Below, piece by piece: positions 8,364 through 28,897 of a stretch of DNA of 64,000 nucleotides. This DNA comes from an uncultured Myxococcales bacterium (lineage in GTDB: Bacteria; Myxococcota_A; Polyangia; Fen-1088), in contig CALAOV010000136.1 of the NCBI GenBank assembly GCA_937889515.1, forward strand, positions 1,061 through 65,060, read 5' to 3'. The notes below the pieces were generated by a model. The model searched no databases. It saw nothing but the letters and a program-made list of their open reading frames with translations, and was not told the DNA's origin. The position numbers and the translations under genes were made by a program. Position 1 is the stretch's first letter; every line of letters starts with the position of its first letter.

Positions 8364-8442
8364 GGCTCGTACTCGGGCGATCGGGACTGTCGAACCGCCC
8401 GCGGTGGCGGACTGCGCTCGCTCGCTGCCTATCGGCAGCTCG

Positions 8443-9317: not shown

Positions 9318-9324
9318 ATTCCCG

Positions 9325-9989: not shown

Positions 9990-10012
9990 ACGTCAAGCAT
10001 ACTGATGTATGC
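9986..10012. promoter_or_regulatory. Operator-like direct and inverted repeats (GCATAC-n5-GCATAC-TGAT-GTATGC) overlapping the antitoxin start codon
   Basis: GCATAC TGAT GTATGC is a perfect palindrome at 9997-10012. A direct GCATAC copy lies at 9986-9991. Confidence 0.35.
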
Positions 10013-10073
10013 ACGGAGCCGCAACTGCACGCTAGGGCACGCCGGCGCTGCTAGTTCAAGCGCCCGCCCGCGG

Positions 10074-10691: not shown

Positions 10692-10880
10692 CCGGACAGC
10701 CTAACCGGATAGCCCTCACCGCCGCTACGGTAGTCCAGGGCGTCTGAGTGCCGCCACTCCGCCAAGCCGCTGCACGGCGAGGTCGTCGCCCGACTACTTC
10801 GGGTACAATCGCGCGGTCTTCTGGGGGGCGTCCGTTGGAGGCAGCATCGTCGCCCGGCGGCAGGACGAAGGAGGTTCGGC

Positions 10881-11909
10881 ATGACGCTTTCCAAGCACGC
10901 CTTTGCGCTGGTCGTCTTCTGTTCTCTTCCCACCTGGGCGGCCACGCCGGAGCGGCCGGGGGTCGGTGGGATCGAGACGATCGCTGAGCTGCCCGGATGG
11001 TGGCACGCTGGATCCAACCCTGCCGGTTACCTGGTGGACCTCGATCGCGCCGTCAGGCACCGTGGTCGGGCGAGCGCCCGTTTGAAGTCGAATGGCGACA
11101 GCCCGACAGGCTTTGGTTCGCTCATGCAGGTCTCGAGCGCCGATGAATATAGAGGCAAGAGGGTGCGCATGAGCGCCTGGGTCAAGTCCGACAAGGTCGT
11201 CAGCCATTCCGGCCTGTGGATGCGCGTGGACGGCCCGAGCGGTGACGCCACCAAGCCGCTCGCCTCCGACGCCATGCAAGACCGCGGCATCGTGGGGACG
11301 CGCGACTGGCAGAAATACGAAATCGTCCTCGATGTCCCGACCGAATCCGTGGACATCGCCTTCGGAGCCCATCTCTCCGGCAATGGGACGCTCTGGATCG
11401 ACGACGTGCAGTTCGAAGGCGTCGACGATCGCGTTCCGGTGACCAGACCCAACCCTGCGGCCCCGCCGCCGCGCGCGAGCAACCTCGACTTCGAGAACGC
11501 TCGAGCGGCGCCCGAGGACGCGATGCGGGAAATCCAGCGCTCTCACATCGAGGCGCACGTACCACCGCCGGTCGACTTCAATGGGATGCTGACCCGCGAT
11601 CTCAGCAGCTACTTCGCGGTCGCGCGGGCGCAGAAGGCGCCGACGATCGACTTCGAGTTGCTCCGGAACGGCCCCACCCAGGTCGGCGTGTCGTATCCCA
11701 AGTTCTACGTCTGGGTGCGCATCGCGGGTGGGATGTCCGCCGACGATCGGGGCGCCGCTCGAGTTGCGGCGGTCGATCGGAAACGGTTTGAGGTCACCGA
11801 CTTCGTTTCGGAGCGCACTATTCGTGGTGACCGAGATGGCATCCGCCGCATCTTCCCGGCGTCGGTGTGCGAGAGGATTCAGGCGAAGCTCGGGAAGGGA
11901 GCGCAATGA
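10881..11909 (+). CDS. Secreted hypothetical protein (jelly-roll-like N-terminal domain)
   Basis: It has the signal peptide MTLSKHAFALVVFCSLPTWAA. No family was recognised. Confidence 0.45.
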   Translation: MTLSKHAFALVVFCSLPTWAATPERPGVGGIETIAELPGWWHAGSNPAGYLVDLDRAVRHRGRASARLKSNGDSPTGFGSLMQVSSADEYRGKRVRMSAWVKSDKVVSHSGLWMRVDGPSGDATKPLASDAMQDRGIVGTRDWQKYEIVLDVPTESVDIAFGAHLSGNGTLWIDDVQFEGVDDRVPVTRPNPAAPPPRASNLDFENARAAPEDAMREIQRSHIEAHVPPPVDFNGMLTRDLSSYFAVARAQKAPTIDFELLRNGPTQVGVSYPKFYVWVRIAGGMSADDRGAARVAAVDRKRFEVTDFVSERTIRGDRDGIRRIFPASVCERIQAKLGKGAQ

Positions 11910-11963
11910 GGATGGCGCGCCGACGGCGTTGCCCCCGCGCCGGAGGGGTGTATACTTAGGCGT

Positions 11964-12212
11964 ATGCCGCGGATGCAGGTTTATCTGCCCGACGATCTCT
12001 ACGAACAGGTGAAGGACCAGCATCTGCCGGCCTCCGAATTGTTGCAGCAGGCGGTCAGGGCAGAGGTCCGGCGGCGTGAGTTGTTGGTCGCCAGCGACGC
12101 CTACATCGCGGAGCTGGCCGCACAGGTTGGCGCGCCCTCGGCCCGTGAGCGCGCCCGCGCCGCCGACTTCGCACGGCGGGCCGTCGCCCGTTCTCATCGC
12201 AAGGCCGGTTAG
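11964..12212 (+). CDS. Antitoxin (RHH/VapB-like)
   Basis: The N-terminus is MPRMQVYLPDDLYEQVK. It lies immediately upstream of the PIN gene. A GTATAC/GTATGC motif spans its start codon. Confidence 0.6.
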   Translation: MPRMQVYLPDDLYEQVKDQHLPASELLQQAVRAEVRRRELLVASDAYIAELAAQVGAPSARERARAADFARRAVARSHRKAG

Positions 12213-12218
12213 CGTCCG

Positions 12219-12599
12219 GTGTTGGTCCTCGATTCGGGCGGAGTTACCCGGCTCTCGGAGCGTTCGCGCCCCGCGCTGGCCTTGATCTTGGCCCTTCGCG
12301 AACAAGGCCTGTGGCCACCCACGGTGCCGGCCGTCGTCCTGGTCGAATGCCTTCAGGGCCACGCCGGTCGCGACGCGAACGAAAATCGATTTCTCAAGAC
12401 CTGCGATATCGTTGGACGGGTGCCGGAGTCGCTGGCGCGACGAGCGGCGCTGCTGCGACGATTGGCCCGTCGCGGTTCGGCCATCGATGCGCTCGTCGTG
12501 GCGAGCGCCGAGCCGGGCGGAACTGTGCTCACGTCGGATCCGGACGATCTCGGGGCACTGGCGAGGCACGCCGAGGATGTATCCATTGAAAGGGTGTGA
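12219..12599 (+). CDS. PIN-domain toxin (VapC-like), paralogous to 9325-9705
   Basis: It has the motifs VLVLDSGGV and VLTSDPDDL. It uses a TTG (or GTG at 12216) start. Confidence 0.7.
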   Translation: MLVLDSGGVTRLSERSRPALALILALREQGLWPPTVPAVVLVECLQGHAGRDANENRFLKTCDIVGRVPESLARRAALLRRLARRGSAIDALVVASAEPGGTVLTSDPDDLGALARHAEDVSIERV

Positions 12600-12654
12600 G
12601 GTCATGCCGAGCATGCGCTTGCTCGTACGGGTGAACGCTCGCTAAGGTGCCAAC

Positions 12655-13413
12655 ATGAAGGCGCCGCGCGTCCAGCTCATGGCGACCTGTCTCGCCGATG
12701 CGTTCTTCGACGACGTGGCGCGGGCGACCGTCGAGGTGCTGGAGCATCTCGGGTGCGAGGTGAGCTTTCCCGAAGACCAGACCTGCTGTAGCCAGCCGGC
12801 GTTCAACAGCGGGGATTGGCCGGCCGCCCGCCAGGTCGCGCGGCACTGCCTGCGGGTGTTCAACGACGCCGCGCCGGTGGTGGTTCCCTCGGGCTCCTGC
12901 GCGCGCATGGTGTCGCACGGCGCCCTGGTGCTCTTCGAAGGAGAGCCCGAGGTCGATCGAACCCAGGCAGCCGAGCTGGCGCAGCGCACCTGGGAGCTGG
13001 GCGATTTCGTGGTGCGCGGCCTCGGCGTGGTGCGGTGGCCGGGGCGCCTCGGCATGCGCCTGGCGTTTCATCGCTCGTGTCACTCGCGCGGAACGGCCTA
13101 CGCCGAGGGGGCGCTGACGCTGCTGCGGTCCATCGACGGGGTCGAGGTGGTCGAGATCGGTGAGGGCGAGCAGTGCTGCGGTTTCGGGGGAACGTTCTCC
13201 GTCGGTTTTCCGCAGATCTCGCGCGGCATGGGCACGCTCAAGATCGATCATGTGCTGGCGACGGCACCCGACGCGCTGGTCTCGGCCGACTCGAGCTGCC
13301 TCATGCACATCTCCGGCTTGGCCGACCGAACGGGGCGGCCGCTGCGAGCTCTCCACCTGGCGCAGGTGCTGCGCGACGCTCTGCGCGCGGCGAGCCCCGA
13401 GGTCCGCGCGTGA
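12655..13413 (+). CDS. lutA: L-lactate utilisation protein LutA, (Fe-S)-binding CCG-domain protein
   Basis: Cysteine motifs CLADAFF...CCSQP and CCGFGG are present. The gene is followed by lutB and lutC. Confidence 0.85.
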   Translation: MKAPRVQLMATCLADAFFDDVARATVEVLEHLGCEVSFPEDQTCCSQPAFNSGDWPAARQVARHCLRVFNDAAPVVVPSGSCARMVSHGALVLFEGEPEVDRTQAAELAQRTWELGDFVVRGLGVVRWPGRLGMRLAFHRSCHSRGTAYAEGALTLLRSIDGVEVVEIGEGEQCCGFGGTFSVGFPQISRGMGTLKIDHVLATAPDALVSADSSCLMHISGLADRTGRPLRALHLAQVLRDALRAASPEVRA

Positions 13414-14834
13414 GCCGTCATCAGGAACCCTTCGACAGCTTCGCCGCCGCCCAGAGCGAGTCGCGCCGAACCGCCGTGCGCCTCGGGAGCAAGGCCGGAC
13501 ACGAGAAGCGCACCGAGGTGTTGAACCGCGACTACCCGGGGTCGCCCTCTCGGGTCGACTCGTTGCGCCGCCTGGCCGGCGAGATCAAGCAGCACACCCT
13601 CGATCACCTGGACCTGTACCTCGAGCGCGCCCAGGCCCGCCTGGAGGCGAACGGCGCCAAGGTGCACTTCGCGGCCGACGCCGACGAGGCCTGCCGCACC
13701 GTGCTCGGCATCCTGCAGAGCCGCGGCGCCAAGCGGGTGGTCAAGACCAAGAGCATGGCCACCGAGGAGATCGAGCTGGGCGCGTTCCTCGAGCGCGAGG
13801 GCATCGAGTCGCTGGAGACCGATCTGGGCGAGTTCATCGTGCAGCTCGACGCCGATAAGCCCAGCCACATCGTCAAGCCGATCATGCACAAGGACCGGCG
13901 CGAGGTGGCGCGCACCTTCGAGGGGCACGGCCTCGGCGCCTACGACGACACGCCCGAGGTCATCACGCGGCGCGCGCGCGAGCACCTGCGGCGCAAGTAC
14001 CTGGAGGCGGACGTCGGCATCACGGGCGCGAACTTCATCTCGGCCGAGAGCGGCCGGCTGGTGCTGGTCACCAACGAGGGAAACTCCCGCTTCTGCCTGG
14101 CCGCCACCCGCTGTCACATCGCGCTCGTCGGGATCGAGAAGCTGGTGCCGCGCGATCGGGATCTCGGCGTGCTCCTGAATCTCCTGGCCCGCTCGGCCAC
14201 CGGGCAGGCGCTGTCGGTCTACACCGAATTCATCACCGGGCCGCGCGCCGCCTCGCAGCCCGACGGCCCCGACGAGATGCACGTCATCTTCGTCGACAAC
14301 GGCCGCAGCGAGATCCTGGCCGGCGACTGCCGCGAGATCCTGCGCTGCATTCGCTGCGGCGCCTGTCTCAACGTCTGCCCGGTTTACCGGCAGTCGAGCG
14401 GCCACGCCTACCGCGGCGTCTACTCCGGTCCGGTGGGCGCGGTGCTGACGCCGCTGCTGGCCGGCGAGGGGTTCAACCACTTCGCCGATCTGCCGCGCGC
14501 GTCCAGCCTCTGCGGTGCCTGCAACGAGGTCTGCCCGGTCGACATCCCCATCCCCGATCTCCTGCTGCGCCTGCGCGATCGCGGCAAGCGCGCCGGGGCC
14601 AAACCGGCCGCCGCCGCGCCGTCCATGAAGACGTTCGCCCGCCTGGCCTCGCGGTCCGCGACCTGGCGGCGCGCCTTGCGGGCCGGGCGGCTGCTCGGCT
14701 TGCTTCCCGGACCGTTGCGGCCGCGCGCGCTGCGCGTCTGGAGCGAAAACCACGTCCTGCCGCCCTGGCGCGGGGGAGCGTTCCGGGAGTGGTTTGCCAA
14801 GCGGAATCGCCCTCCCGTGGACGGAGCGGTCTGA
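13410..14834 (+). CDS. lutB: Lactate utilisation protein LutB (4Fe-4S ferredoxin-type iron-sulfur protein)
   Basis: CIRCGACLNVCPVY and CGACNEVCPV are ferredoxin motifs. A GTG start overlaps the lutA stop. The 13173 start in the ORF track is an out-of-context extension. Confidence 0.85.
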   Translation: MSRHQEPFDSFAAAQSESRRTAVRLGSKAGHEKRTEVLNRDYPGSPSRVDSLRRLAGEIKQHTLDHLDLYLERAQARLEANGAKVHFAADADEACRTVLGILQSRGAKRVVKTKSMATEEIELGAFLEREGIESLETDLGEFIVQLDADKPSHIVKPIMHKDRREVARTFEGHGLGAYDDTPEVITRRAREHLRRKYLEADVGITGANFISAESGRLVLVTNEGNSRFCLAATRCHIALVGIEKLVPRDRDLGVLLNLLARSATGQALSVYTEFITGPRAASQPDGPDEMHVIFVDNGRSEILAGDCREILRCIRCGACLNVCPVYRQSSGHAYRGVYSGPVGAVLTPLLAGEGFNHFADLPRASSLCGACNEVCPVDIPIPDLLLRLRDRGKRAGAKPAAAAPSMKTFARLASRSATWRRALRAGRLLGLLPGPLRPRALRVWSENHVLPPWRGGAFREWFAKRNRPPVDGAV

Positions 14835-14837
14835 TCG

Positions 14838-15458
14838 ATGGGCGACGCGCGCCAGCTGATCCTCGACCGCGTGAAGGCCGCGCTGGCGATCCTTCCCGAA
14901 AAAAAGCCGCTGCCCGAGTATCCGGCCGACGTCGCGCTGTCGCTCGGCGCCCCCGCCCCGGGCGATGCGGTGGCCGGCTTCCGCGAGCAACTGGAATCCG
15001 TTCGCGGCCGATCCTTCACCGACCCGGCTGCGCTGGGAGCTTGGCTCGCCGAGCAAGGGGCGACCCGGGGCTACTGCGATCCCGCGCTCGCCGGTTGGCT
15101 CGGAACGGCGCTGGGCGGTGACCTCGCCCTCGAGACCACGCTCGACCGCGATCGCATCGACGACTATCAATTCGGTATCACGCGCGCCTGGGGGGCGGTG
15201 GCCGAAACGGGGTCGCTGATTCTCGACGACGCCACCACGTCGCGCCGGCTAGGCGCGCTGGCGCCTTGGATCCACATCGCGGTCGTGGCCCCCGAGCGCA
15301 TCTTGCCCGACGTGGGGAGCGCCATCGCGGCGCTGGGGGACGATCCGAACGTGATCTTCTGCACAGGCCCGTCGAAGACCGCCGACGTGGAAGGGATCCT
15401 CATCGAAGGCGTACACGGCCCTGGCGAGCAGGTCGCCCTGATATACTCTCGAGCTTGA
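14838..15458 (+). CDS. lutC: Lactate utilisation protein LutC (LUD domain)
   Basis: It sits after lutB in the conserved lutABC order. The size and sequence fit the LUD domain. Confidence 0.8.
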   Translation: MGDARQLILDRVKAALAILPEKKPLPEYPADVALSLGAPAPGDAVAGFREQLESVRGRSFTDPAALGAWLAEQGATRGYCDPALAGWLGTALGGDLALETTLDRDRIDDYQFGITRAWGAVAETGSLILDDATTSRRLGALAPWIHIAVVAPERILPDVGSAIAALGDDPNVIFCTGPSKTADVEGILIEGVHGPGEQVALIYSRA

Positions 15459-15946
15459 TTCGTTCCCGCCGGAACCGGCGTTGCACGTACCTCACGCTCG
15501 CCATCGCAACGCTCACTCTCGGCTGCCACCCCGGGGTCGAGGCGCCGGGTGTGCCGCTCTACCCCAACGCCGAGACGACCCGGCTGCCGCGGACCCAGAT
15601 CGCCCTGGTCGCCGGTCCCATCGCGAAGATCGACGAAAAGGACGTGGCGGACCAGGGCGGGCGGTTCGAGCTCTTGCCGGGCTGTCACGTCGTCGAGCTG
15701 GACAGCCGGATGGTCCCAGACGGCAACAATCTGTCGGGTGGCATGTATTGGACCGGATCGTTCCCGAGAACGATTTACGCCATTCACATGAAGGCGGGCG
15801 CGCGGTACGAAATTCGGCGAGATATTTTCGCGGACGGGCAGACGGGCCGCCTCGTCCTATCGGCGAGCGAAGAAGAGCCGGGCGGAGCGATGACCGAGCT
15901 GGCTCCGGCGAAATCTGCGGAGGAGATCAAGGCCTGCAGGGAATAG
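15455..15946 (+). CDS. Hypothetical lipoprotein
   Basis: A TTG start overlaps the lutC stop. The signal peptide RSRRNRR...LTLGC carries a lipobox. Confidence 0.45.
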   Translation: MIRSRRNRRCTYLTLAIATLTLGCHPGVEAPGVPLYPNAETTRLPRTQIALVAGPIAKIDEKDVADQGGRFELLPGCHVVELDSRMVPDGNNLSGGMYWTGSFPRTIYAIHMKAGARYEIRRDIFADGQTGRLVLSASEEEPGGAMTELAPAKSAEEIKACRE

Positions 15947-16068
15947 GGGGCGACGGCGCGGGGGCCGTCCTCATCAATGGGGCGGACGAGCGTCGTGGGC
16001 CAGGTACATCCGCAACAGCAGCGTGTCCAGCTCCATCGACGTCTTTACGGGCCGAGGCCGCGTTGAAA

Positions 16069-16749
16069 CTAGAGATCGTCGACGCCACCGGCGGGTTTCG
16101 CCGGGGCCGTCCGGGTGTAGCCGGCGCTGCCGGGAACGAAATGAAACGGGTAGGAGACGTTCACGACCTCGCGTCCGAGCGGGTGGGGGAGCTCCCAGTG
16201 GGGGAACTCCCAGCGGCGGATCGCCGCCACCACGCAGCTTTCGACGCGCGGCGCGCGCAACGTCGAGTCCCGCAGCCGGGCGGCGACGACCGCACCCCGG
16301 AGCGAGATCGTGAACTCGAAGGTCGCCCAGCCGCCGAACGCGCGCTTCCTGACCAGCTCCAGCTCGTAGCAGTACTTCACCTCGTTGATGTGGCGCCGGA
16401 CGATACGGCGGACGATCTCCTTGTCGAGCGAGCCTTGGACGCTTGCGGACCCTGGGATCACGTCCGGCGGCCTCGCGATCCGCGGGCCTAGCCTGCCCGC
16501 TCCGCGGCTGAACCCGGAGCCGTTCCCGTCGGAGGGCTCGTGTTCGACGTGATCCGCCTCGGGCTCCGGCGCTTCGAGCGGTCCCACCTCCCCCGTCTCG
16601 AACCCGGGCGGGTGCAGTTTCCCTATCTCGTCGGGTGACGGGGCTGCCGCCGACCCTCCCTTGCCGCCGGGTACGCCCGGCGACGACGGCGCATTGAAGC
16701 AGGCCCCCAGCACGACGACGAGGGCGAAGGCTTTGGGCGGGCGTCTCAT
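16069..16749 (-). CDS. Lipoprotein with AgmX/PglI C-terminal domain (Myxococcota-type)
   Basis: The lipobox is VLGAC. The C-terminal block EIVRRIVRRHINEVKYCYELEL resembles the AgmX/PglI C-terminal domain. Confidence 0.55.
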   Translation of the reverse strand: MRRPPKAFALVVVLGACFNAPSSPGVPGGKGGSAAAPSPDEIGKLHPPGFETGEVGPLEAPEPEADHVEHEPSDGNGSGFSRGAGRLGPRIARPPDVIPGSASVQGSLDKEIVRRIVRRHINEVKYCYELELVRKRAFGGWATFEFTISLRGAVVAARLRDSTLRAPRVESCVVAAIRRWEFPHWELPHPLGREVVNVSYPFHFVPGSAGYTRTAPAKPAGGVDDL

Positions 16750-16837
16750 GCCAATCTCACGGCAACCTCACAAGAGACATCGCGGAAGCGCCGGGGTTCC
16801 CTGGCCTGCGTCGGGAAACATTCAACGCCCGCCCATG

Positions 16838-16936
16838 AAGCCACACGTCATCTGCCACATGATGGTCTCGCTGGACGGTCGCATTCATCCGAGCCGCTGG
16901 ACGGCGAGCCCGGACGGCAACCGCCAGGACTGGACG
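16838..16936 (+). pseudogene. Orphan 5' fragment (33 codons) duplicated from the RibD-C/DHFR-family gene at 19175
   Basis: It encodes MKPHVICHMMVSLDGRIHPSRWTASPDGNRQDW. The DNA is about 94% identical to 19175-19273 and then diverges. Confidence 0.45.
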
Positions 16937-16940
16937 ACGG

Positions 16941-17498
16941 TCACTGTTGTCTCGTGTCGAGGACGCAGTTTCGCGACGCTTCGAAGTCGCTCCGATCCCG
17001 ACACATCCGGCGCTGGTCAGGACTCGGCCGGGGCGGCAGTTCCGGGTCGACGACGGTCGCCGACGAAGGCTCCCCGGGCATGAACGTCCCACCGGCGTCT
17101 CCCGGCCGCGGGGTCCGGTAGACGATGCACGTCGCCGAATAGACTTGAAACGAGCTATCGAAATACGTCAGCCCAGTGGGTCTGGTCGTCGAGCTGGGAG
17201 CCGCGAGCAACAAGGCATCGCAGCCCTTCTCGCCGCCACTCTGACGCAAGGCCCAGATCAAACTGGCCGGCGTTTCGTAGCCTCCTCCACCCTCTTGAAT
17301 TGAGATGAGGCCGACGTCGACATGGGGCCGTTCCGGCGGCGTGCTGGAGAAGACCTGAATCTGTTCGGGCCTGCGCGCCTCGGGGTCGTGGGGCGGAGCG
17401 TTCAGCGGTGTGTACGTCACCGTGGTCTCGGCGCAGCCGCTGAGCCAAATACCGAGGACCAGCCCGCAGCGCAGCCAGCGGCTCGACGAAATCAACAT
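16941..17498 (-). CDS. Hypothetical lipoprotein
   Basis: The signal peptide is MLISSSRWLRCGLVLGIWLSGC. The longer 17564 start is probably an extension. Confidence 0.45.
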   Translation of the reverse strand: MLISSSRWLRCGLVLGIWLSGCAETTVTYTPLNAPPHDPEARRPEQIQVFSSTPPERPHVDVGLISIQEGGGGYETPASLIWALRQSGGEKGCDALLLAAPSSTTRPTGLTYFDSSFQVYSATCIVYRTPRPGDAGGTFMPGEPSSATVVDPELPPRPSPDQRRMCRDRSDFEASRNCVLDTRQQ

Positions 17499-17627
17499 GG
17501 CGTGGTCAACCGTTGCAAAACTATTGCCAGCGCGAGCCCCGTCTTCGTCGCCTGGCACACGCACTCAGTGAGGCCCGACCACCACACTCGACGCGCTTAC
17601 CAGCGCTTCGCGGTGTAAGATGTCCCT

Positions 17628-17846
17628 GTGACGCGAGCGCAACGAATACTCGAAGAGGTAGGCCAGCTTCCTCCGGACGAGCGGATGGACGTTCTGCGTG
17701 GCGTGGTCGGTCTCGTGGCGCCGTCGCTGTCCGCTGAGCAGGAAAATGGGATAGCGGAGGCCATGGACGAGGCCGATCGGGATGAGACGGTCGATGGTCC
17801 GGCGGCCCTCGCGGCGGCACGCCGACGAGCCCGCAGCGATGGCTAG
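17628..17846 (+). CDS. Putative addiction-module antitoxin-like protein (TIGR02574-like), no adjacent toxin
   Basis: ILEEVGQLPPDERMDVL resembles the LPxxER helix of that family. It is 72 aa. Confidence 0.45.
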   Translation: MTRAQRILEEVGQLPPDERMDVLRGVVGLVAPSLSAEQENGIAEAMDEADRDETVDGPAALAAARRRARSDG

Positions 17847-18406
17847 CGCCTCTCCAGGAACCCTCTGCCTTCGAATATCGCCGGCATCGCCTTTTCGATT
17901 CGCGCCACCCGCGTCGCCGACTGCTTGGCCGCCGCAAAGTGATAGAGGTAACTCCTCTGCCGCCCCGGCGTCAGCGCCTCGAAGGCGCGCTTGAAGCGCG
18001 GGTCCCCTCGGAACCGCTCCGTGAGCTCCTCGGGAACCGGAAAATCCGAGGTCTTCTTTTTCTCCATCCGCAGCCCGGCCTTCTCGACTGCGATGGCCTC
18101 GCGCACGTAGGCCTTGATGGTCGCCGCCTTCGCCGTGATGTCCTTAACGCTGGCGAACTTCATCACCCGCCCGGCGTGCACCTGACCGAGCTGCACCAGC
18201 ACCTTCTTGGGGTCCTTCAGCAGGGCGCCCTGAAAGAAGAGCAGCGCGAAGTACTCCTTGAAGCCCTGAATGATGACGATGTTCCTCCCATCCACCGTGT
18301 AGGTGGGCTTGGCCCACTTACACTCCTCCTTCATCGCCAAGCCGGCGAGCACCCGCCGCATCTCCGCGATCTCCGCCCGCCACCGCTCGCGATACGCCAT
18401 CTCCAT
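17843..18406 (-). CDS. YdeI/OmpD-associated (DUF1801-type) family protein
   Basis: The C-terminal PGRQRSYLYHFAAAKQSATRVARIEKA is typical of this family. Confidence 0.6.
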   Translation of the reverse strand: MEMAYRERWRAEIAEMRRVLAGLAMKEECKWAKPTYTVDGRNIVIIQGFKEYFALLFFQGALLKDPKKVLVQLGQVHAGRVMKFASVKDITAKAATIKAYVREAIAVEKAGLRMEKKKTSDFPVPEELTERFRGDPRFKRAFEALTPGRQRSYLYHFAAAKQSATRVARIEKAMPAIFEGRGFLERR

Positions 18407-18455
18407 GCCAGCGGCGTCTCCTTCAGTCGCGCGGCCTGTTCAGGCTGTCCCGGTC

Positions 18456-19049
18456 CTACTGGATGGTTGAGGGGCAGAGGTTCGGGCAGTTGGTGCTTGC
18501 GCAGGACTGCAGCGGGGCCAGCTCGGCGCCGGTGGCAGCCCCTGTGGCGTGCTGGATGTAGGCTTGGCAGCCCGAACTGTTCTCGCAAGCGTTGAACTGC
18601 TCGCAGCAGTACGTCGCCAGACAAGTGTTGCAGTCGGCGCTCGCCAAGGTGAAGGCGTCCGGGATCAACGTGCATGCTCCGCCGGCGCCCCCTGCGCCAG
18701 CTGCTCCGCTTGCGCCGGCGGTCGACTGACCACCTGTTCCACCGACGCCCCCGGCTCCGCCCGCTGCTTGGCCGCCAGAACCCGCTGCCGCACCGCCCGC
18801 GCCCGTCGCCTTTCCGGCCTCGCCCCCGGCGCCCGCTTGACCGGACACGCCACCGGCTCCGCCCGCGCCGGCCGGCTGAACGCAGAGGTTGGAGAGACAC
18901 TCCAATCCGGTGTCGCAGGTCCCGTTGCTGAAGCAGGGACCGCCGACGCTGCCGGCCGCCTTCGAGCTACTTCCGCAGCCCGCGAGCACCGCCGCGGTCA
19001 ACGTCACGCCAAACAGTGCTCCCAGTACACAACGCAAAGATAGCCTCAT
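18456..19049 (-). CDS. Lipoprotein with Gly/Ala-rich linker and Cys-rich C-terminal domain
   Basis: The lipobox is LAGCGS. A low-complexity AGGAGG tract is followed by a domain with 12 Cys. Confidence 0.5.
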   Translation of the reverse strand: MRLSLRCVLGALFGVTLTAAVLAGCGSSSKAAGSVGGPCFSNGTCDTGLECLSNLCVQPAGAGGAGGVSGQAGAGGEAGKATGAGGAAAGSGGQAAGGAGGVGGTGGQSTAGASGAAGAGGAGGACTLIPDAFTLASADCNTCLATYCCEQFNACENSSGCQAYIQHATGAATGAELAPLQSCASTNCPNLCPSTIQ

Positions 19050-19174
19050 TGCTCTCGACGCCTAACACGACGACGCGAAGGAGACAAGTTGCTGTCGCGG
19101 CACAGCAACCCAGCCCGCCAGGCCTCCCCGATTGGCCGCGGCAACCGCGGCGCTTCGGTGATATCAACGGCCGA

Positions 19175-19875
19175 ATGAAGCCGCACGTCATCTGCCACAT
19201 GATGGTCTCACTCGACGGTCGCATTCACCCGAGCCGCTGGACGGCCAGCCCGGACGGCAACCGCCAGGACTGGGGGAAGGTCTACGAAGACGTGCACGGC
19301 GCGCTGGCGGGTGACGCCTGGCTGGTCGGGCGCGTGACGATGGCGGAGATGAGCAAGGGGACGCCGCACCCACCGTCGCGTCCCGAGAAGGTCGCGCGGC
19401 CGCACCACTTCGCGAAGCGCGACGCCGTGACGTACGCGATCGCCTTCGACCGCTCGGGCAAGCTGCACTTCGCCAAGGCCGACATCGGCGGCGACCACGT
19501 CGTCGTGCTGCTCGGCCCGGGCGTGCCGGACGCCCACCTCGCGGAGCTGGCGGGCGACGGCGTGTCGTACGTCGTCGCGGCGGACGAGGAAATGGCGGCG
19601 CGGCCGCTGTTCGAGGTGCTCGGACGCGAGCTGGGCATCAAGCGGCGCTCGTCGAAGGCGGCGGCAACGTGAATGGGTCGCTGATGGCGGCGGGCGTGGT
19701 CGACGAGGTGAGTTTGCTAGTCGCGCCTGCCATCGACGGGGCGCTCGGGGTCACGGGGGTGTTCGAGGTGCCGGCGGCGGCGGGGCTCGCGGGCAAAGTG
19801 CGGCTAAGGTTCGTGGGGAGCGAGGCGCTCGCGCACGGGGTGGTGCGGCTGCGGTATGGGGTGGAACCGGGCTGA
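19175..19875 (+). pseudogene. RibD C-terminal domain / dihydrofolate-reductase-family reductase, disrupted by a +1 frameshift near 19640-19650
   Basis: The N-terminus MKPHVICHMMVSLDGRI and the segment GDAWLVGRVTMAEM match this family. The reading ends at ...ELGIKRRSSKAAAT*. The conserved LVEGGGNVNGSLMAAGVVDEVSLLVAP... continues in the +1 frame to 19875. Confidence 0.55.
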
Positions 19876-20022
19876 GGGCGACGGATGTCCCTGCGATCTA
19901 TAGTCCTCCGCGCGTGCGACCTCTCGCGACGTTCCGATCGAGGCTATGCCGTGGCCTATTCGAGAGCGTATCGCCGTCGACCTATGTGGGCCAATGGCCC
20001 CGGCGAGTGAGCGCAGAGTTTC

Positions 20023-22950
20023 TCAGTTAGCGGCGATTTCCTGAACCTGGCCCTTGCTTATTGCGTCGCGCACGACCTCACGCTCTTCGATAGGCAATTC
20101 CAATAGGGCCCGCTCATCGCCACTATCCCGGTAATTCAGTCCTACTCGCAGCATTTTAAGAGCGACCGCGCAATCCTCCGCCTCAGCAAGGCGTCTCTCT
20201 AAAGCAACACTAGCCTCTTTCCATTCGTGCCCGTTAGAAACGCGTATTGCCAGCGCGAGTATGACGAACCCTACGACTACGTTCGCGAACGCGTCCTCGG
20301 GCCCCCGGCTACCAAGTGCAGTCCTAACCTTCTCAACTGCTCGCACGGCCGCGTTTGGGCCTTTTCGCCGGAGCTCGACCTCGAGAAGGCCTATGATAGT
20401 CAAGGCTAGTAGCTGTGGTCCGGCATCCGAAAACACCTGGAATTCGCTCACGAACTGATTCAGCGCACCGTCGAATCCGTCGACAGCCGCTAGAGCGCGT
20501 AGATACTGCATTTTGACGATTGGGGATCCCGGCTCAAGGGTAATCGTCGTTCGCATGGCATCGAGTGCCGCCACAAAGTTTCCCCGCTGTTCTTCGATTT
20601 CGGCCATCCACTGCCACGCTCTAGCTCTCTCGGACGCTGACGGCCAGTCAGCATGGATCATGCGCCGGATCTCCCGTTCGCCCTCGGCGACCTTGCCGAT
20701 GTGAGTAAGCGCATGGATCTTCGTCAGCGTCGCAGATCCACTCCTGGGATCTATCGCCAAAGCCCTGTCAGCTGCTTGCGAAGCCTCAGCATACTCATGT
20801 TTAGCTTCGTACGCATTTGCCAGCTCTACCCATCCGTTAACCCAGTTTGGCTCGTCTTCAACCAGTCTTTGCATCTCGCTAACTGCCTCATCGACCCGAT
20901 CCAAGGCACGGAGAAGCTCACCCCGCGTTACCTTGTGCTCTCTCTCTCCTGGTTCGAGCTGCTCAAGACGAAGCAACGTCTCCAACGCCTCCGTCTCTCG
21001 GGAAAGCTCTCTCAGTAGGAATACTTTTCGATCCAGAACATACACGTCGTCCGGCTCGACCGAGAGTGCTCTATCGAGGTAGGTCAAAGCGTCCTCAGGA
21101 GTCCTTCCCAGTAACTCCGACATTGCGATATAGGGAAATATCGACTGGGGAAGGCGTTCAATGCCGCTCTGAGCTGCCGCGATGGCCTCATCGTGGCGCC
21201 CGCTCTTCTCAAGCGCCAGCGCCATAACGTAGTATGAATGAGCGTGCGTTGGATTAACATCCAACAATTTCCTTTCGCTCTCGATCGCCTCTTGGCACCG
21301 GTTAAGCGCCAAGAGAATCGTACCATGCAGGCAACTCGCACCCTTTGAAGTCGGATCTAGCTCCAGTGCTCGCGTAAGTTCGGTGAGAGCTTCGGGTGAC
21401 CTCTTCAAATCGTTGAGTGCATCTGCCTTCCGAAAGAAAAGGTAAGAATCGTTCGGATGTCGGATAAGTCCCCGTTTGGCCACTTCCAATGACGATGAAC
21501 TATTGCCGCGTCTCGATTCGATCAATGCCAGAGTGCCGAAGTCCTTGGCACTGCCGCGCTCACTTACGACTTGCTCCATCGCGCTGGCTGCCGCTACGAA
21601 ATCGCCCCTGTCGTAGCAGCGCTCCGCTTCATCGAAAAGAGCGGCCAGCAACGGCTCGGTACTGTCTCGTTCGCCTCGGTCGATAGCTTCCTCGAGATGA
21701 CAACGGTCTAGGAGATGACGATCGGTGGGCTCGTGTGAAATCGCCTCAAACCGGGTCTTAAGTTCCCTTAGCAAGAACCAACGCCGCAAGAAGTCCACAA
21801 ACAGCTCGAGATGTCTTGTGCGTTTGTCCTTTACCTCGAAGCACAGACGCATAAGTGGTTCTGCCAGTTCGCAGTATGTGTCACGACCCACCGACGTCCG
21901 TCGTACGAAGCCAAGTCGGGACAGCTCGCCTAGTTGCTTCGCCGCTGTCTGAGGAGAGATGAGGCATCGGTTGGCGACATCTTTAACCATGGTCGGAATG
22001 TGCTGCTGAGCGAGGAATTCAATGAGCTTTCGCTGTTGCGGCGCCAGTAGACGGATCCGATCCTGATAATAGGGCGTTAGGTCGTCGATCATCTTCATAA
22101 ACGGGGGGAAGAGATCGTCGAGCGACTCCCGGGTCAGGAAGTCCGACATCACGATATAGACTCGATGGAAGCCTCCGGCCAAATGGTGAATCGCCCTAGC
22201 ACGGGCTCGGCCCAGAGGTGAGTCCAGCGCGATAGCTAGATCCCGTCGGCCATCTAAAAGTGCCTTCTGCTTCAGCAGACTCAGAGCGCCTTCGAAGTCG
22301 AGCAATTCCAAACGCCGGATCGTGAAGAATCCGAAGAATGGCGATGATTGAAGTTTCATCCCGGCGAATAGTGCGGGACTTGTGGCTAAGATAGTCCAGA
22401 AGGGCTTTGACTGCATAAAGGCGCGCCAACGGTGCTGGCCCTCGGTTCCTAGTCCATCGAAGATATCGACGAGGTTTTCACAAATCAGAAGGAGAGTATC
22501 GTGTCCGACATACTCTGAGAGGAGAGACTCGGCGGTTTCGCGAGCGACCGTTGGAGAATGGGCGTGGAGGTCGTATAAACGATCTATTCTCTGCGTGAGG
22601 CCTGGTGTGGAGGACGCTAGGGCTTTGAGAATGCGGATGAGAAAGTCTAAATACGACGCGACTCCCCATTCCTCTTCATTGAGAAACGCGATTTTCAATT
22701 GCGAGCGCGCGGATGCCCAGCGGGCATCGTGAGTGAGTCGGTGGTGGAGGAGCTCAAGAAAATGCGTCTTACCGACCCCGCGCTGGCCGATAAGCAGGAA
22801 GAAGTGCTTCGCCCGTGTGGTCGCGGATTCGGCCAGCCTGCCGAGGATATTGTCGAGCAGTTCTGTTCGGCCGACGAAGAGACTATCGAGAGCCTCTGGA
22901 GTCATGTTCCCAGGGCTATAGCGAGAACTAGTGACGATCGCGCGACTCAT
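20023..22950 (-). CDS. Large P-loop NTPase (STAND/Arch_ATPase-like) with winged-helix and C-terminal TPR array
   Basis: FVGRTELLDNILGRL precedes the Walker A motif IGQRGVGKTHFL. The Walker-B-like motif is LLLICENL. A wHTH-like segment is MVKDVANRCLISPQTAAKQLGELSRLGFV. Multiple TPR-like helical repeats span residues ~450-900. The gene is about 57% GC against ~70% for the window. Confidence 0.7.
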   Translation of the reverse strand: MSRAIVTSSRYSPGNMTPEALDSLFVGRTELLDNILGRLAESATTRAKHFFLLIGQRGVGKTHFLELLHHRLTHDARWASARSQLKIAFLNEEEWGVASYLDFLIRILKALASSTPGLTQRIDRLYDLHAHSPTVARETAESLLSEYVGHDTLLLICENLVDIFDGLGTEGQHRWRAFMQSKPFWTILATSPALFAGMKLQSSPFFGFFTIRRLELLDFEGALSLLKQKALLDGRRDLAIALDSPLGRARARAIHHLAGGFHRVYIVMSDFLTRESLDDLFPPFMKMIDDLTPYYQDRIRLLAPQQRKLIEFLAQQHIPTMVKDVANRCLISPQTAAKQLGELSRLGFVRRTSVGRDTYCELAEPLMRLCFEVKDKRTRHLELFVDFLRRWFLLRELKTRFEAISHEPTDRHLLDRCHLEEAIDRGERDSTEPLLAALFDEAERCYDRGDFVAAASAMEQVVSERGSAKDFGTLALIESRRGNSSSSLEVAKRGLIRHPNDSYLFFRKADALNDLKRSPEALTELTRALELDPTSKGASCLHGTILLALNRCQEAIESERKLLDVNPTHAHSYYVMALALEKSGRHDEAIAAAQSGIERLPQSIFPYIAMSELLGRTPEDALTYLDRALSVEPDDVYVLDRKVFLLRELSRETEALETLLRLEQLEPGEREHKVTRGELLRALDRVDEAVSEMQRLVEDEPNWVNGWVELANAYEAKHEYAEASQAADRALAIDPRSGSATLTKIHALTHIGKVAEGEREIRRMIHADWPSASERARAWQWMAEIEEQRGNFVAALDAMRTTITLEPGSPIVKMQYLRALAAVDGFDGALNQFVSEFQVFSDAGPQLLALTIIGLLEVELRRKGPNAAVRAVEKVRTALGSRGPEDAFANVVVGFVILALAIRVSNGHEWKEASVALERRLAEAEDCAVALKMLRVGLNYRDSGDERALLELPIEEREVVRDAISKGQVQEIAAN

Positions 22951-24107
22951 GTCCGGTTCTCACGCCACCAGCGCTTCAGGAGCGGCCAGCGAAAGCCGTA
23001 TAGGCCGCCAGAGAGAGAGAGGTAATGGTCGCGCCGAAGATCGACGCATGTCGCTTTGACGTCCTCGTCAGTCCACTGGTCATTGCTGTGGCGTACGAGG
23101 TTTGTAAGTGTCTCGAGAGTGATGCCCCCGTCCGCACGGGCTATGGCATCTAGTACTGCCAGAGCCCGGGCTACCTCGGGAGCGTCATAGTGAGTCGAGA
23201 TGCGTTCAACGTAGTAGCCAAAGTTGGCGACGTCGTCATCGTCGGAGAGAAGCTTCGTAACCACGGCCTCGACGTCGGCGGCCATGGGTGCTCGTCCGAG
23301 GAGGCTAAGCTGGTCCACAAAGTGATGTACGTGGTACGGGTATCCTCCTGTAGCGTCGACGATCAACGCCGCCACGGCGGGTATATCAGGGGGTGGAGAA
23401 GGGAGGTGTCCAAGTGCCCTGGTGGCGACCTCTTCCGCTTCGGTTCGAATCATGGGCGGGACGGTTTCGAGCTGCATGTCGTTAATAGGTGCGTTTGAGT
23501 TGCCGGACTTTCTAAGGCCGCGCAGCACGAGATGGAGGCCAATGGACCCGTTGAGCAGAAACCGCAGTCGCGCGCCGTGCATCTGCCGGAGGTGTCTCAG
23601 GAGGTCCAGAAGCTCGATCGCTGTGTTAGGACCCTCTCGTTGGACGATGTTGTAAAGCATCAACGGAAATTCGTCCCAGATGAAGATCACCTTGTGATCG
23701 GGTTCCACTGCATCAAGGACATCCTCGATCGCCCCTGAGAGTAGGGCTTTCCATTTCGAAAAGGCTTGCGGGAGTTCGAGATTGCCGAGCTTTGTTGGCA
23801 GAAAGCCGTCCCAGACTTCGATGGCGCGTGCTTTGGCCCGCGCGGCCCGGGGTAGGTGGTCCCGAACCGTGCGATAGACGGATCGGACGAGCTCGAGGAC
23901 GCCATGAATGGCCTCGAGTTCTTGGAAGAAGGTGACCGCTCCGGTACGACCCTCCTCGTGCATTTTTAGGACGATGTGGGTTTTCCCGATTCGGCGCTCA
24001 GCTCCCAGAACGAGGCTCTGGCGCTCAAGGATCGTCCAGTAGCGGGCTACCTCGGCCGTGCGGCCGACAATTTCGTCGATGCTGAGATGGCCACCCGGAT
24101 TAATCAT
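22947..24107 (-). CDS. AAA+/Arch_ATPase-like P-loop NTPase, paralogous in its ATPase core to 20023-22950
   Basis: IVGRTAEVARYW precedes the Walker A motif LGAERRIGKTHI. The Walker B motif is VIFIWDEFP. It overlaps the downstream NTPase-TPR gene by 4 bp, and its GC is low. Confidence 0.7.
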   Translation of the reverse strand: MINPGGHLSIDEIVGRTAEVARYWTILERQSLVLGAERRIGKTHIVLKMHEEGRTGAVTFFQELEAIHGVLELVRSVYRTVRDHLPRAARAKARAIEVWDGFLPTKLGNLELPQAFSKWKALLSGAIEDVLDAVEPDHKVIFIWDEFPLMLYNIVQREGPNTAIELLDLLRHLRQMHGARLRFLLNGSIGLHLVLRGLRKSGNSNAPINDMQLETVPPMIRTEAEEVATRALGHLPSPPPDIPAVAALIVDATGGYPYHVHHFVDQLSLLGRAPMAADVEAVVTKLLSDDDDVANFGYYVERISTHYDAPEVARALAVLDAIARADGGITLETLTNLVRHSNDQWTDEDVKATCVDLRRDHYLSLSGGLYGFRWPLLKRWWRENRT

Positions 24108-24235
24108 GGTCGTAAAAATACGTTAAAAACGACGTACGTCAAGTACGTCGTACGTTGAAAATAACGTATATTGGCCGCCGGTTAGTAAGTTATTGAAATA
24201 CTGTATGTATTTGTTGGATACCGGGCGCCGGCTTT
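24108..24235 (-). promoter_or_regulatory. AT-rich promoter/operator region upstream of the NTPase operon, with ACGT-core imperfect palindromes
   Basis: The sequence TACGTTAAAAACGACGTACGT caagt ACGTCGTACGTTGAAAATAACGTA is the AT-richest stretch in the window. Confidence 0.3.
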
Positions 24236-24238
24236 CGG

Positions 24239-25027
24239 CTACCCCCGCCGCGTCTTCCTTCCGTACCCCAACTCCGCCCCCCCCGACAGCACGTGATCGA
24301 CCCCCGTCGTGAACGTCGCCTCCGCCGCCAAATACAGACACAGCCGCCCCGCCTCCTCGATCGTCCCCATCCGCCCGAGCAACTGCGCCGCCTCGCCCGA
24401 CGCGCGCGTCGCGGCCGGGTCGTCGGACGCGTCGATCGCTTCCTGCCAGAGCGGCGTGTACACATTCCCCGGCGAAACGGCGTTCACGCGGACCTCGTAC
24501 TCGGCCTCGTCGACCGCCAGCGCCTTGGTCAGTGCCGTGATCGCGCCCTTCGTCGCGACGTACGTCGTCGCGTGGAGCTGGCCGATGGCGCCGACGAGGC
24601 TGGACATGTTGATGATGTTGCCCTTCACCTTGCGCAGGTGGGGCAGGGCGAACTTGCAGGCGGCGAAGATGCTCACCAGGTTCAGGTCCAGCAGGTGGCG
24701 GAAGTCCTGCACGGAGAAGTCGTCGATCGGCTTGTGGTCCGGGTGCCAGCCGGCGTTGTTGATGAGGCAGTCGAGCCGCCCGAACTTTCCGACCGTCTCG
24801 TCGATCAGCGTGCGGACGTCGTCGACCTTGCTGACGTCGCACTGGACAAAGTGGGCGCGCCCGGGCCCGTGCGTGTTGAGGTGCGCCGCGACGGCCTGGC
24901 CGTCCTCGGCGTTGCGCGCGCAGAAGACGACGTCGGAGCCGCCCTCCTCGACGAAGGCGCGCACGCACCCGAAGCCGATCCCTTTGCTGCCGCCGGTGAC
25001 GACGACGACCTTGTCTTTGTAACGCAT
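24239..25027 (-). CDS. SDR-family oxidoreductase (candidate L-fucose 1-dehydrogenase)
   Basis: The Rossmann motif TGGSKGIGFG is present. The catalytic residues are S..Y..K (SSLVG...YVATK). It is the last gene of the sugar ABC transporter operon. Confidence 0.75.
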   Translation of the reverse strand: MRYKDKVVVVTGGSKGIGFGCVRAFVEEGGSDVVFCARNAEDGQAVAAHLNTHGPGRAHFVQCDVSKVDDVRTLIDETVGKFGRLDCLINNAGWHPDHKPIDDFSVQDFRHLLDLNLVSIFAACKFALPHLRKVKGNIINMSSLVGAIGQLHATTYVATKGAITALTKALAVDEAEYEVRVNAVSPGNVYTPLWQEAIDASDDPAATRASGEAAQLLGRMGTIEEAGRLCLYLAAEATFTTGVDHVLSGGAELGYGRKTRRG

Positions 25028-25275
25028 GGGTTCAGCCCCTCACCTGGGCAGCCGGAGCGATGGGTGGACACTCTGCAGACCTGTCGTAGAAAGAAAGCAT
25101 GGCAAAATATGCAGGCGTCGCGCTTTACGTGCTTGTGCTGGTAGCGGTCGTCGTCGGCGTGGACGTCGCGTTCTTCCGGAACCGGTTCTGGGAGCGGCTG
25201 ATGGTGAACGTTGGAATCGTCCTGGTGTTCGGGGCGTTCTACTTGAGGTTCCTGAAGCCTCCCGGCTGAGCGCGG

Positions 25276-28822: not shown

Positions 28823-28897
28823 CGAGGCGGATAATAGGAGGTCCGCGAATTTCTGGACATGCCGATTTTCTCGGCGGCGTGCTAGAGAGGATCGGCT

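Follow-up and report, generated by a model that had tools for sequence, protein, structure and literature searches.

A RibD_C-family gene and a copy of its 5' end lie in an accessory region

The stretch of DNA analyzed here (the window) is 64,000 nucleotides long and comes from an uncultured Myxococcales bacterium. On its plus strand, at 19158-19875, it carries a reductase pseudogene of the RibD_C family, with a leader at 19158-19174, an ATG at 19175 and a stop codon at 19873-19875. Upstream of it, on the same strand at 16822-16942, we found a relic of the 5' end of a gene of this family, which comprises a leader of at least 13 nt, an ATG at 16835 and codons 1-36 (MKPHV...NRQDWTTV). A search of the whole window detected no second RibD_C paralogue.

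Between the two copies lie a 186-aa lipoprotein gene (16941-17501, minus strand, ATG at 17501, lipobox LSGC), a small cassette (17588-17840, plus strand, its junctions read against the relative L172) with a 72-aa ORF at 17628-17846, an intact 187-aa gene of the YdeI/OmdA and DUF1801 families (17843-18406, minus strand; Pfam PF13376, 8e-19, and PF08818, 6e-16) and a Gly/Ala- and Cys-rich lipoprotein gene of 197 aa (18456-19049, minus strand, lipobox LAGC). Neither lipoprotein matched a Pfam family. To the left, a junction of 20 nt (16802-16821) separates the relic from the conserved upstream region of an AgmX/PglI-type lipoprotein gene (16069-16749, minus strand). To the right, an island on the minus strand (20023-24107) encodes a 975-aa AAA_16/HTH/TPR protein and a 386-aa protein. 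GC content falls to 0.55-0.59 at 20001-24000, compared with about 0.68 on either side, in line with the original prediction of a low-GC island beside a frameshifted gene.

A single-base deletion disrupts the reductase gene

Compared with its relatives, the RibD_C gene lacks one T from the CTG codon 158, between 19646 and 19647: the relatives read AAGCGGCTGCTCGTC at this point, while the window reads AAGCGGC-GCTCGTC. Frame 0 now runs as ...ELGIKRRSSKAAAT* into a premature stop at 19670-19672, so that translation ends eight codons after the lesion and the truncated product has 165 aa. The LVEGGGNVNGSLMAAGVVDE... tail continues in the -1/+2 frame (frame index 2), which holds the last 76 codons, from CTC at 19648 up to the stop at 19873-19875. 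The loss of frame that had been proposed near 19645 is therefore real, and only the frame assigned to the C-terminus (+1) needs correction.

The frameshift destroys the conserved LLVEGGGN motif, which we aligned to the solved reductase 6p8c, and the last 76 residues are lost. At the lesion site, the pattern GI(K/Q/E/D)RL(L/I)(V/L)EGGG was present in all 14 aligned homologues, and no single intact frame that includes the (L/V)EGGG motif runs through 19175-19875. Because this motif is out of frame and a stop lies at 19670-19672, we consider the locus a pseudogene of the PF01872 family. Judged from the destroyed motif, the 165-aa product is almost certainly inactive.

We also considered that the split might be functional, either through a programmed -1 frameshift or through termination-reinitiation yielding 165-aa and 68-aa products that assemble into an active enzyme. 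The first ORF does end in a stop that overlaps the GTG start of the second (GTGA, 19669-19672), and the homologous gene in L072 has its interruption no more than 15 nt away and terminates at the same stop. However, that common stop is merely the first one in its frame, and the LLVEGGGN motif is missing from both products. Reading of the sequence at 19637-19650 revealed no slippery heptamer (X XXY YYZ), and the two-frame layout is not conserved, since essentially all orthologues are encoded in a single frame. This makes a functional split extremely improbable.

The frameshift is present in other assemblies

Single-base indels are commonly artefactual, and the DNA at this locus is very GC-rich. 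Moreover, indels in the RibD_C gene of two long-read relatives (L064 and L170) are probably errors. The frameshift could thus be an artefact of sequencing or assembly that hides an intact gene, and a homopolymer error near 19645 had been put forward as the point to exclude. The lost T, however, sits in CGG-CTG-CTC, outside any homopolymer, and the exact 165-aa product is also encoded on contigs of three other assemblies (ENA ERZ923665, ENA ERZ27262737 and JGI 3300039467). These metagenome contigs are 99.95-99.98% identical to the window, with zero differences across 16612-21945; outside this segment, SNPs separate them from the window and from each other. We infer that the three assemblies are independent from their differing sample accessions and differing SNPs. 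Contig names beginning with k127_ and k141_ point to short-read k-mer assemblies, and an intact version of the window allele was absent from a collection of 15 billion proteins.

Because the three other assemblies match base for base and the lost base has no homopolymer around it, we conclude that the frameshift is not a sequencing error, and an intact gene behind it is highly improbable. Within the population sampled, the deletion has become fixed. With the deletion repeated in three other assemblies and the orthologues intact, the gene is a genuine pseudogene. The original prediction was open to refutation by resequencing that removed the frameshift and by relatives that shared the fragment arrangement; it survived on both counts, as independent assemblies keep the frameshift and relatives carry an intact gene without the fragment. 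A 198-aa protein (P0143) was examined as a candidate N-terminally truncated RibD_C copy and rejected, as its truncation reflects a long-read indel.

The pseudogene is young and belongs to a family of unknown substrate

Our search retrieved 2651 RibD_C homologues, the top 120 of which are mostly 233 aa long, and full-length ORFs are present at about 40 of 44 Polyangia loci. In the window the frameshift is the sole lesion of the gene, and comparison with its intact relatives gives a dN/dS of 0.12-0.17, against a range of 0.07-0.21 when intact genes are compared with one another. Since dN/dS is unchanged and intact 233-aa orthologues are abundant, inactivation of the gene is recent. An independent deletion of 1 nt is found in L072, 15 nt downstream of the window lesion; some lineages, such as L072, can dispense with the gene.

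The repaired 233-aa protein scores 67 bits against Pfam PF01872 (gathering cut-off 24.1) and covers profile positions 1-196 of 197, which places it in this family. Its closest solved relative is the archaeal-type 2,5-diamino-6-ribosylamino-4(3H)-pyrimidinone 5'-phosphate reductase (PDB 6p8c), to which it aligns over residues 1-221, including the region of the EGG motif. To assess a role in the riboflavin pathway, we used the curated cut-offs of NCBIfam TIGR00227, TIGR01508 and NF010663. Unlike true riboflavin-pathway reductases, the window protein lies well below every one of them (48.4 vs 150, 41.1 vs 186 and 23.3 vs 184), and its gene is frameshifted as well. Given scores so far under the cut-offs, we regard it as a PF01872 member of unknown substrate and no demonstrated RibD. 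Upstream of the gene we found no FMN riboswitch or other Rfam family, and scanning 15500-25000 against Rfam (E<=1) returned a single, meaningless 13-bit match.

The upstream relic probably represents a different allele

The first 100 bp or so of the gene had been described as duplicated 2.3 kb upstream, from position 16838. The duplication is real, although the relic's ATG lies 3 nt earlier, at 16835: between positions 16835-16933 and 19175-19273 there are 5 differences in 99 sites (94.9% identity), and both stretches encode the same 33 residues. In a repeat search the two copies matched over 108 nt at 93% and lay 2340 nt apart. BLAST between the paralogues gave an E value of about 3e-39, and tblastn matched residues 1-36 to the relic at 94% (E 4e-20). 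Similarity reaches beyond these 99 sites at both ends, into the leader by about 13 nt (from 16822) and over three further codons (to 16942). The upstream copy had been thought to degenerate after this point. Instead, it is cut off at 16942, where it stops abruptly against the 3' end of the 186-aa lipoprotein gene with no degeneration. On its left side, homology to the region upstream of the AgmX-like gene in L174, L001 and L090 stops at about 16801, and homology to RibD_C leaders begins at about 16820-16822.

The differences between the two copies are informative on their origin. The direct repeats are on the same strand, 2340 nt apart, and the gene orders of the window and L010 (lipoprotein/YdeI/lipoprotein) are cyclic permutations that duplication and deletion could produce. 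This would be accounted for, with no foreign allele, if the 5' end had been duplicated locally in tandem and the upstream copy had then undergone deletion and neutral decay. However, such decay is expected to affect every codon position and to bring indels or stops, while all five differences in codons 1-33 are synonymous third-position changes (P about 0.004 if codon positions are equally hit). In addition, two of the five are unique to the full copy and hence arose on its side, one is unique to the relic and two are polymorphisms common to other alleles. At codons 34-35 the relic reads WTTV and the full copy WGKV, both natural allele states, and the TT of the relic matches the alleles of L095, L097 and L019. 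The rest of the interval also holds no duplicated part. Local duplication with decay is therefore unlikely.

Thus, local duplication and decay do not appear to explain the relic, whose sequence suggests that it is the remnant of a different allele of the RibD_C gene. Only about 108 nt carry this allele signal, and the 2-8 differences that separate the relic from other alleles over 93-108 nt give no discrimination among candidate donors. The same sequence pattern would also arise if the gene had been duplicated in situ and ordinary homologous recombination had then replaced the allele of the full copy. We also tested the 5' block for extra constraint at the nucleotide level, such as a hidden RNA or an att site. 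Synonymous diversity is 0.32-0.34 in codons 1-30 and about 0.36 in the rest of the gene; the two are the same, and the 5' block is therefore conserved at the protein level only.

The intervening genes are native neighbors joined at new junctions

The block at 16941-19049 had been offered as a possible simple indel relative to an intact gene. This did not hold, as in the closest relatives, L172 and L010, these lipoprotein and YdeI genes natively lie upstream of the intact RibD_C gene, and in L010 so does the second lipoprotein gene. The YdeI gene is 92-96% identical in nucleotide sequence to those of L172, L010 and L012, and the 197-aa lipoprotein gene is 77.6% identical to its counterpart in L010. 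The 186-aa lipoprotein gene has orthologues in L172 (84.9% nt) and L010 (86.4%), to which it aligns only from about 16953 onwards: its last three to four native codons have been replaced, and its stop (16941-16943) overlaps the end of the relic. What is odd in the window with respect to L172 and L010 is thus the 121-nt relic and the cassette of about 250 nt (17588-17840), which occupies a gap between the lipoprotein and YdeI genes that is only 20 nt in L172.

The original list of the 2.3-kb content was right as to the two lipoprotein genes, the YdeI-like gene and the small gene; its term antitoxin-like for the last rests on context and a weak match. The 72-aa ORF had no Pfam or PADLOC match, and BLASTP aligned it weakly to an Unstab_antitox protein (E=0.015). 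A homologue precedes ParE, overlapping the start of the ParE gene, in L001 and L174 (90.8% nt). Others lie just after RibD_C in L010, L172 and L093 (about 80%) and just before the RibD_C fragment in L012. No toxin gene adjoins the ORF in the window, L010 or L172. From this context and the single pairwise match, the ORF is possibly an orphan antitoxin.

The layout could also reflect insertion of a mobile element, either of a transposon that made a target-site duplication or of an integrative island supplying a replacement 5' end, with the repeats as attL and attR. Direct repeats do flank a 2.2-kb block of accessory genes, and breakpoints at nt 94-108 of the gene recur in L012 and L171. Several observations argue against it. 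At 108-121 nt and 93-95% identity, the repeat is too long and too inexact for a target-site duplication, and in L172 and L010 the block genes natively neighbor the intact gene. Gene tables list no transposase or integrase within about 10 kb on either side or, for integrases, in 16943-19161 itself, and there are no terminal inverted repeats and no tRNA. Neither a transposon with its target-site duplication nor a site-specific integrative island fits the repeats, and we consider a mobile element very unlikely.

The locus is part of a hypervariable interval

The interval is bounded by conserved LutABC genes on the AgmX side and by SDR/ABC-transporter genes on the other, and its content differs in every relative examined. 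The variable genes of the relatives include ParE cassettes, Fic, DUF433/DUF5615 and 4-5 kb of extra genes. In L001 the slot of the low-GC island is taken by a 60-aa protein plus Fic, and in L090 by a DUF433/DUF5615 pair. The flanks of the island gave only chance-level repeat matches, PADLOC returned only marginal matches for its proteins, and a promoter and terminator scan found nothing above shuffled expectation. No tRNA or tmRNA was detected in the whole window.

Relative to L172 and L010, the window has at least five junctions within 2.4 kb. L012 carries a RibD_C 5' fragment (nt 1-94) together with a degenerate third copy, and in L171 the RibD_C gene is fused from about nt 95. The L171 contig shows odd inverted self-matches and may be chimeric, which makes it weak evidence.

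A model of recombination scarring followed by pseudogenization

Taken together, we favor, with a probability of roughly 0.7, two layers of ordinary genome decay, namely recombination scarring and then pseudogenization, in a recombination-prone accessory region on the chromosome of a soil bacterium of the Polyangia (Myxococcota). Recombination scarring is also the best reading of what had been proposed as scarring from insertion or recombination events. At 16942 a truncated copy of a different allele is joined to non-homologous DNA, as in a scar of illegitimate recombination. Our model suggests that a second copy or allele of the RibD_C gene diverged while still functional, and that recombination then took place with DNA of a related lineage, in which the conserved 5' block would have served as the homologous anchor. 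An illegitimate joint would have formed at the 3' end of the lipoprotein gene, through homology-facilitated illegitimate recombination or through unequal exchange followed by deletion, so that the resident 5' end stayed in place and a complete copy was retained 2.3 kb downstream. Separate events would have brought in the low-GC island and the cassette with the 72-aa gene. The RibD_C gene itself was inactivated recently, when codon 158 lost one T. We expect no function for either the relic or the split gene.

No microhomology could be clearly assigned at the joints, each of which has 10-20 nt matching neither side. L172 and L010 have a plausible donor-like gene order with no exact match. We tried to link the window, L010, L172 and L012 through a one-step history (circular permutation, or tandem duplication and deletion), and no single event fits. 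Because no such link was found and no sampled relative has the pre-event arrangement, the exact order of events is not reconstructable.

Homology-facilitated illegitimate recombination, or sequential displacement, has been proposed for the T6SS effector-immunity arrays of Vibrio cholerae and for Rhs loci, where module displacement leaves orphaned genes and gene ends (PMC5361080, citing de Vries & Wackernagel 2002 and Prudhomme et al. 2002). As in that process, a conserved gene segment would act as the anchor here and incoming modules would displace resident DNA; orphaned small genes and truncated ends lie beside a complete copy, and the arrays are heterogeneous, with duplication alone insufficient to account for them. 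In contrast, the anchor in the window is a housekeeping-type reductase gene and not a toxin locus, and there is only one relic. The mechanism proposed here is also read from the sequence pattern. The locus further resembles integration hotspots for toxin-antitoxin and defense genes, as varied cassettes (ParE/Unstab_antitox, Fic, DUF433/DUF5615 and the low-GC NTPase-TPR island) lie between the conserved LutABC and SDR/ABC-transporter genes. Unlike known hotspots, it is marked by no recombinase, tRNA or att-like repeats. With its truncated second allele, orphaned small gene and low-GC island, it is a well-documented example of how an accessory-gene hotspot is remodeled without mobile-element machinery in large, GC-rich myxobacterial genomes.

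For annotation, the gene at 19175-19875 should be recorded as a genuine, population-fixed pseudogene, neither as a riboflavin biosynthesis reductase nor as two short ORFs, and the ORF at 16835-17083 should not be called a gene.

A new biological question would arise only if the recurrent breakpoint at nt 94-108 were non-random. It is conceivable, if rather doubtful, that the first 95-108 nt of the RibD_C gene are a preferred recombination anchor or breakpoint for the exchange of accessory cassettes in soil Polyangia. If this were true, and not a coincidence of where conservation ends, the segment would be a recombinase-independent docking site that organizes a hypervariable toxin-antitoxin and defense hotspot, and the relic, which keeps its leader and start codon, might then promote antisense transcription of the lipoprotein gene next to it. 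The breaks nearly coincide, at about nt 108 in the window relic, nt 94 in the L012 relic and about nt 95 in the L171 fusion, and all three are joined to lipoprotein genes.

A one-base deletion truncates the RibD_C-family reductase gene

Frame 0 of the full copy (ATG 19175, to 19875) closes with ...ELGIKRRSSKAAAT at the stop 19670-19672, and the C-terminal tail LVEGGGNVNG...GVEPG sits in frame index 2. With one residue restored, the repaired 233-aa protein matched Pfam RibD_C from end to end (67 bits). At the lesion site, all 14 aligned homologues carry GI(K/Q/E/D)RL(L/I)(V/L)EGGG, and the DNA reads AAGCGGCTGCTCGTC in relatives and AAGCGGC-GCTCGTC in the window. The missing base is the T of CTG in codon 158, lost between 19646 and 19647. 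The frameshift of the original prediction is therefore real, but the conserved C-terminus continues in -1/+2, not in the +1 frame; the homopolymer error considered near 19645 does not apply, as the lost T lies outside any homopolymer. The TGA stop of the truncated N-terminal ORF overlaps a GTG opening a 68-aa C-terminal ORF (GTGA, 19669-19672). This mimics a translational-coupling junction and is probably coincidental, because that reading frame meets its first stop at this TGA.

In independent sequence data, the deletion was kept: contigs of three other sample accessions (ENA ERZ923665, 66 kb; ENA ERZ27262737; JGI 3300039467) encode the identical 165-aa truncated product. Over 10-20 kb they match the window at 99.95-99.98% identity, with zero differences among them and the window across 16612-21945, and SNPs at 12500, 21937 and 26337-29023 distinguish them both from one another and from the window. 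As the deletion is shared despite SNPs elsewhere, at least four sequence versions carry the deletion, the upstream relic and the whole arrangement, and an artefactual frameshift is ruled out. An intact form of exactly this allele was absent from a collection of 15 billion proteins. Nearly all SNPs against two near-identical contigs, L004 and L005, cluster within about 1.1 kb (26337-27486) in the gene for the ABC-transporter ATPase; L004 has 10 of its 11 SNPs there and is identical to the window over about 17 kb (9175-26336). The cluster suggests a tract of homologous recombination or a mix of strains at this gene.

Through the frameshift the protein loses the LLVEGGGN motif and its last 76 residues, a region with a counterpart in the alignment to the solved reductase 6p8c, so that reductase function would be lost. 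Inactivation is recent. The full copy has no further stop or indel, and dN/dS of the repaired gene against intact relatives is 0.12-0.17 (the restored base was placed a few nt off, affecting one codon), compared with 0.07-0.21 among intact genes, so nearly all divergence accumulated under purifying selection. The repaired protein scored far under every NCBIfam cut-off for true riboflavin-pathway reductases, and no riboswitch was found before the gene. We therefore class the enzyme only as a RibD_C-family member, not as a demonstrated riboflavin-pathway reductase, which makes loss of its gene plausible. In a Polyangia MAG (SMAG_U6141, L072 3002-3704, 85% identity), the gene has independently lost a single nucleotide, GGGCGGCGGC to GGGGGCGGC, 15 nt downstream of the window lesion; this deletion leads to the same TGA stop and likewise to a 165-aa product. 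This suggests that some lineages can do without the gene.

The upstream copy is a truncated relic of a second gene version

The predicted duplication of the reductase 5' end was confirmed. Across their first 99 nt, the two copies show 5 mismatches and specify an identical stretch of 33 residues, a repeat search detected a 108-nt match at 93% identity whose two members lie 2340 nt apart, and BLAST recovered the paralogous pair at E ~3e-39, far beyond chance. The upstream ATG lies at 16835, 3 nt before the start initially given (16838), and the repeat extends further, through a leader of about 13 nt (from 16822) and three more codons, ending at 16942.

The upstream copy had been described as degenerating. 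Instead, it is a truncated relic with a sharp end: homology to the RibD_C gene breaks off at 16942, and from about 16953 on the sequence is the 3' end of an opposite-strand lipoprotein gene, whose last codons differ from the orthologues at two related loci (L172 and L010) and whose present stop (16941-16943) overlaps the relic end. All five differences in codons 1-33 are third-position and synonymous, with a probability of ~(1/3)^5 = 0.004 were changes spread evenly over the three codon positions. Set against other alleles, the full copy alone carries two of the five and the relic alone one; the remaining two are polymorphisms that other alleles share. At codons 34-36, the relic has WTTV and the full copy WGKV, both states being present in intact orthologues. 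Synonymous-only differences and natural allele states thus indicate that the copies diverged while both were functional, as alleles or xenologues, and the relic has decayed very little since its truncation.

The reductase gene lies in a hypervariable interval

The window is GC-rich (~0.65-0.72), and its proteins find their best matches in MAGs labelled Polyangia, Polyangiaceae or Myxococcales. Relatives keep the flanks at 84-90% nucleotide identity, with LutABC and an AgmX-like gene on the left and SDR and an ABC transporter on the right. The AgmX/PglI-type lipoprotein gene (16069-16749, minus strand; lipobox LGAC) matches the myxobacterial AgmX/PglI C-terminal domain NF033768 at 85 bits, which together with the best protein matches places the window in a genome of soil Polyangia (Myxococcota). 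Its product, a short stand-alone version of this domain adjoining the LutABC genes, is also akin to the C-terminus of the gliding motility protein GltG (NF033760, 98 bits, far under the 650 cut-off).

Between these flanks, the interval differs in every relative examined. Loci L001, L002 and L174 carry genes for a 256-aa protein, Unstab_antitox, a 74-aa protein, ParE, RibD_C, a 60-aa protein and Fic; L090 has a small membrane protein, RibD_C and a DUF5615/DUF433 pair. L172 has proteins of 459, 490 and 447 aa, pyrophosphatase, lipoprotein, YdeI, 227 aa, 194 aa, Unstab_antitox, ParE, RibD_C, 71 aa and 78 aa, and L010 has two lipoproteins, YdeI, about 2 kb, RibD_C and a 72-aa gene. In the closest relatives, L172 and L010, the lipoprotein and YdeI genes (in L010 also the second lipoprotein gene) natively lie upstream of the intact RibD_C gene. 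Thus, the 2.3 kb between the copies is not one clean insertion.

Two features set the window apart: the relic, and a cassette of about 250 nt (17588-17840) carrying a 72-aa ORF (17628-17846, plus strand), located at a point where 20 nt separate the lipoprotein gene from the YdeI gene in L172. Homologues of 71-75 aa (window 17588-17846; L001 9050-9274; L010 8725-8943; L172 10750-10965; L012 7067-7294), without a Pfam family, share 80-91% nucleotide identity and occur in four contexts around RibD_C: before ParE, right after RibD_C, immediately ahead of a RibD_C fragment, and in the gap separating the lipoprotein gene from YdeI. Judged by these positions, the gene behaves like a mobile or often recombined small gene.

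The low-GC island (20023-24107, minus strand, GC 0.55-0.59) occupies the slot of the 60-aa and Fic genes in L001 and of the DUF433/DUF5615 pair in L090. It encodes a 975-aa AAA_16 ATPase/HTH/many-TPR protein and a co-directional 386-aa protein, for which no family match was found. PADLOC matches are marginal (SoFic, 8e-5; IetS, 1.6e-3); the two could be an uncharacterised STAND-like defence pair.

Recombination probably accounts for the arrangement

The locus combines a recent pseudogene with the remnant of a gene copy, both within a hypervariable accessory region; it is an ordinary but nicely documented case. The proposed recombination scarring was supported, with corrections to the reading frame, to the coordinates, to how the relic is understood and to the single-insertion idea. 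At least five junctions fall within 2.4 kb, indicating several events. Searches of the locus yielded no transposase, integrase, terminal inverted repeats, short exact target duplication or tRNA, and no repeats flanking the island, so that transposition and site-specific integration are both disfavoured.

The topology runs from a resident 5' end through non-homologous DNA to a complete copy of another allele. We infer a double exchange in which one crossover would be homologous, either inside the gene or past it, and the second joint would be illegitimate, inside the resident gene; the relic would then stem from homology-facilitated illegitimate recombination. Alternatively, the gene may have been duplicated in situ and the full copy then replaced by another allele. 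Homology-facilitated illegitimate recombination has also been proposed for the displacement arrays of Vibrio T6SS and Rhs loci, which leave orphan genes and truncated gene ends (PMC5361080).

Other partial copies occur. The long-read MAG MFD06714.bin.2.117 (L012), where some indels may be errors, holds three RibD_C-derived pieces within 3.4 kb: a 5' fragment (7277-7384, nt 1-94), an intact copy (8001-8702) and a degenerate, frameshifted third copy (9845-10625). The fragment, 97% identical to the window relic, lies directly behind the 75-aa gene, and a lipoprotein gene separates it from the intact copy. In L171 (ENA ERZ1759910, 1454-2398), a 2.5-kb contig with suspicious inverted self-matches that may be chimeric, a lipoprotein-like N-terminus (111 aa, lipobox AGGC) is fused in-frame to RibD_C beginning at about nt 95 (about codon 32). 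The breakpoints at nt 94-108 fall where a strongly conserved N-terminal block ends, amino-acid identity dropping from 0.91-0.95 to 0.58 at codons 31-40. Synonymous diversity in the block is not reduced, so the block hides no nucleotide-level element. A non-random recombination breakpoint at nt 94-108 is a possibility, and the only mildly novel aspect of the locus.
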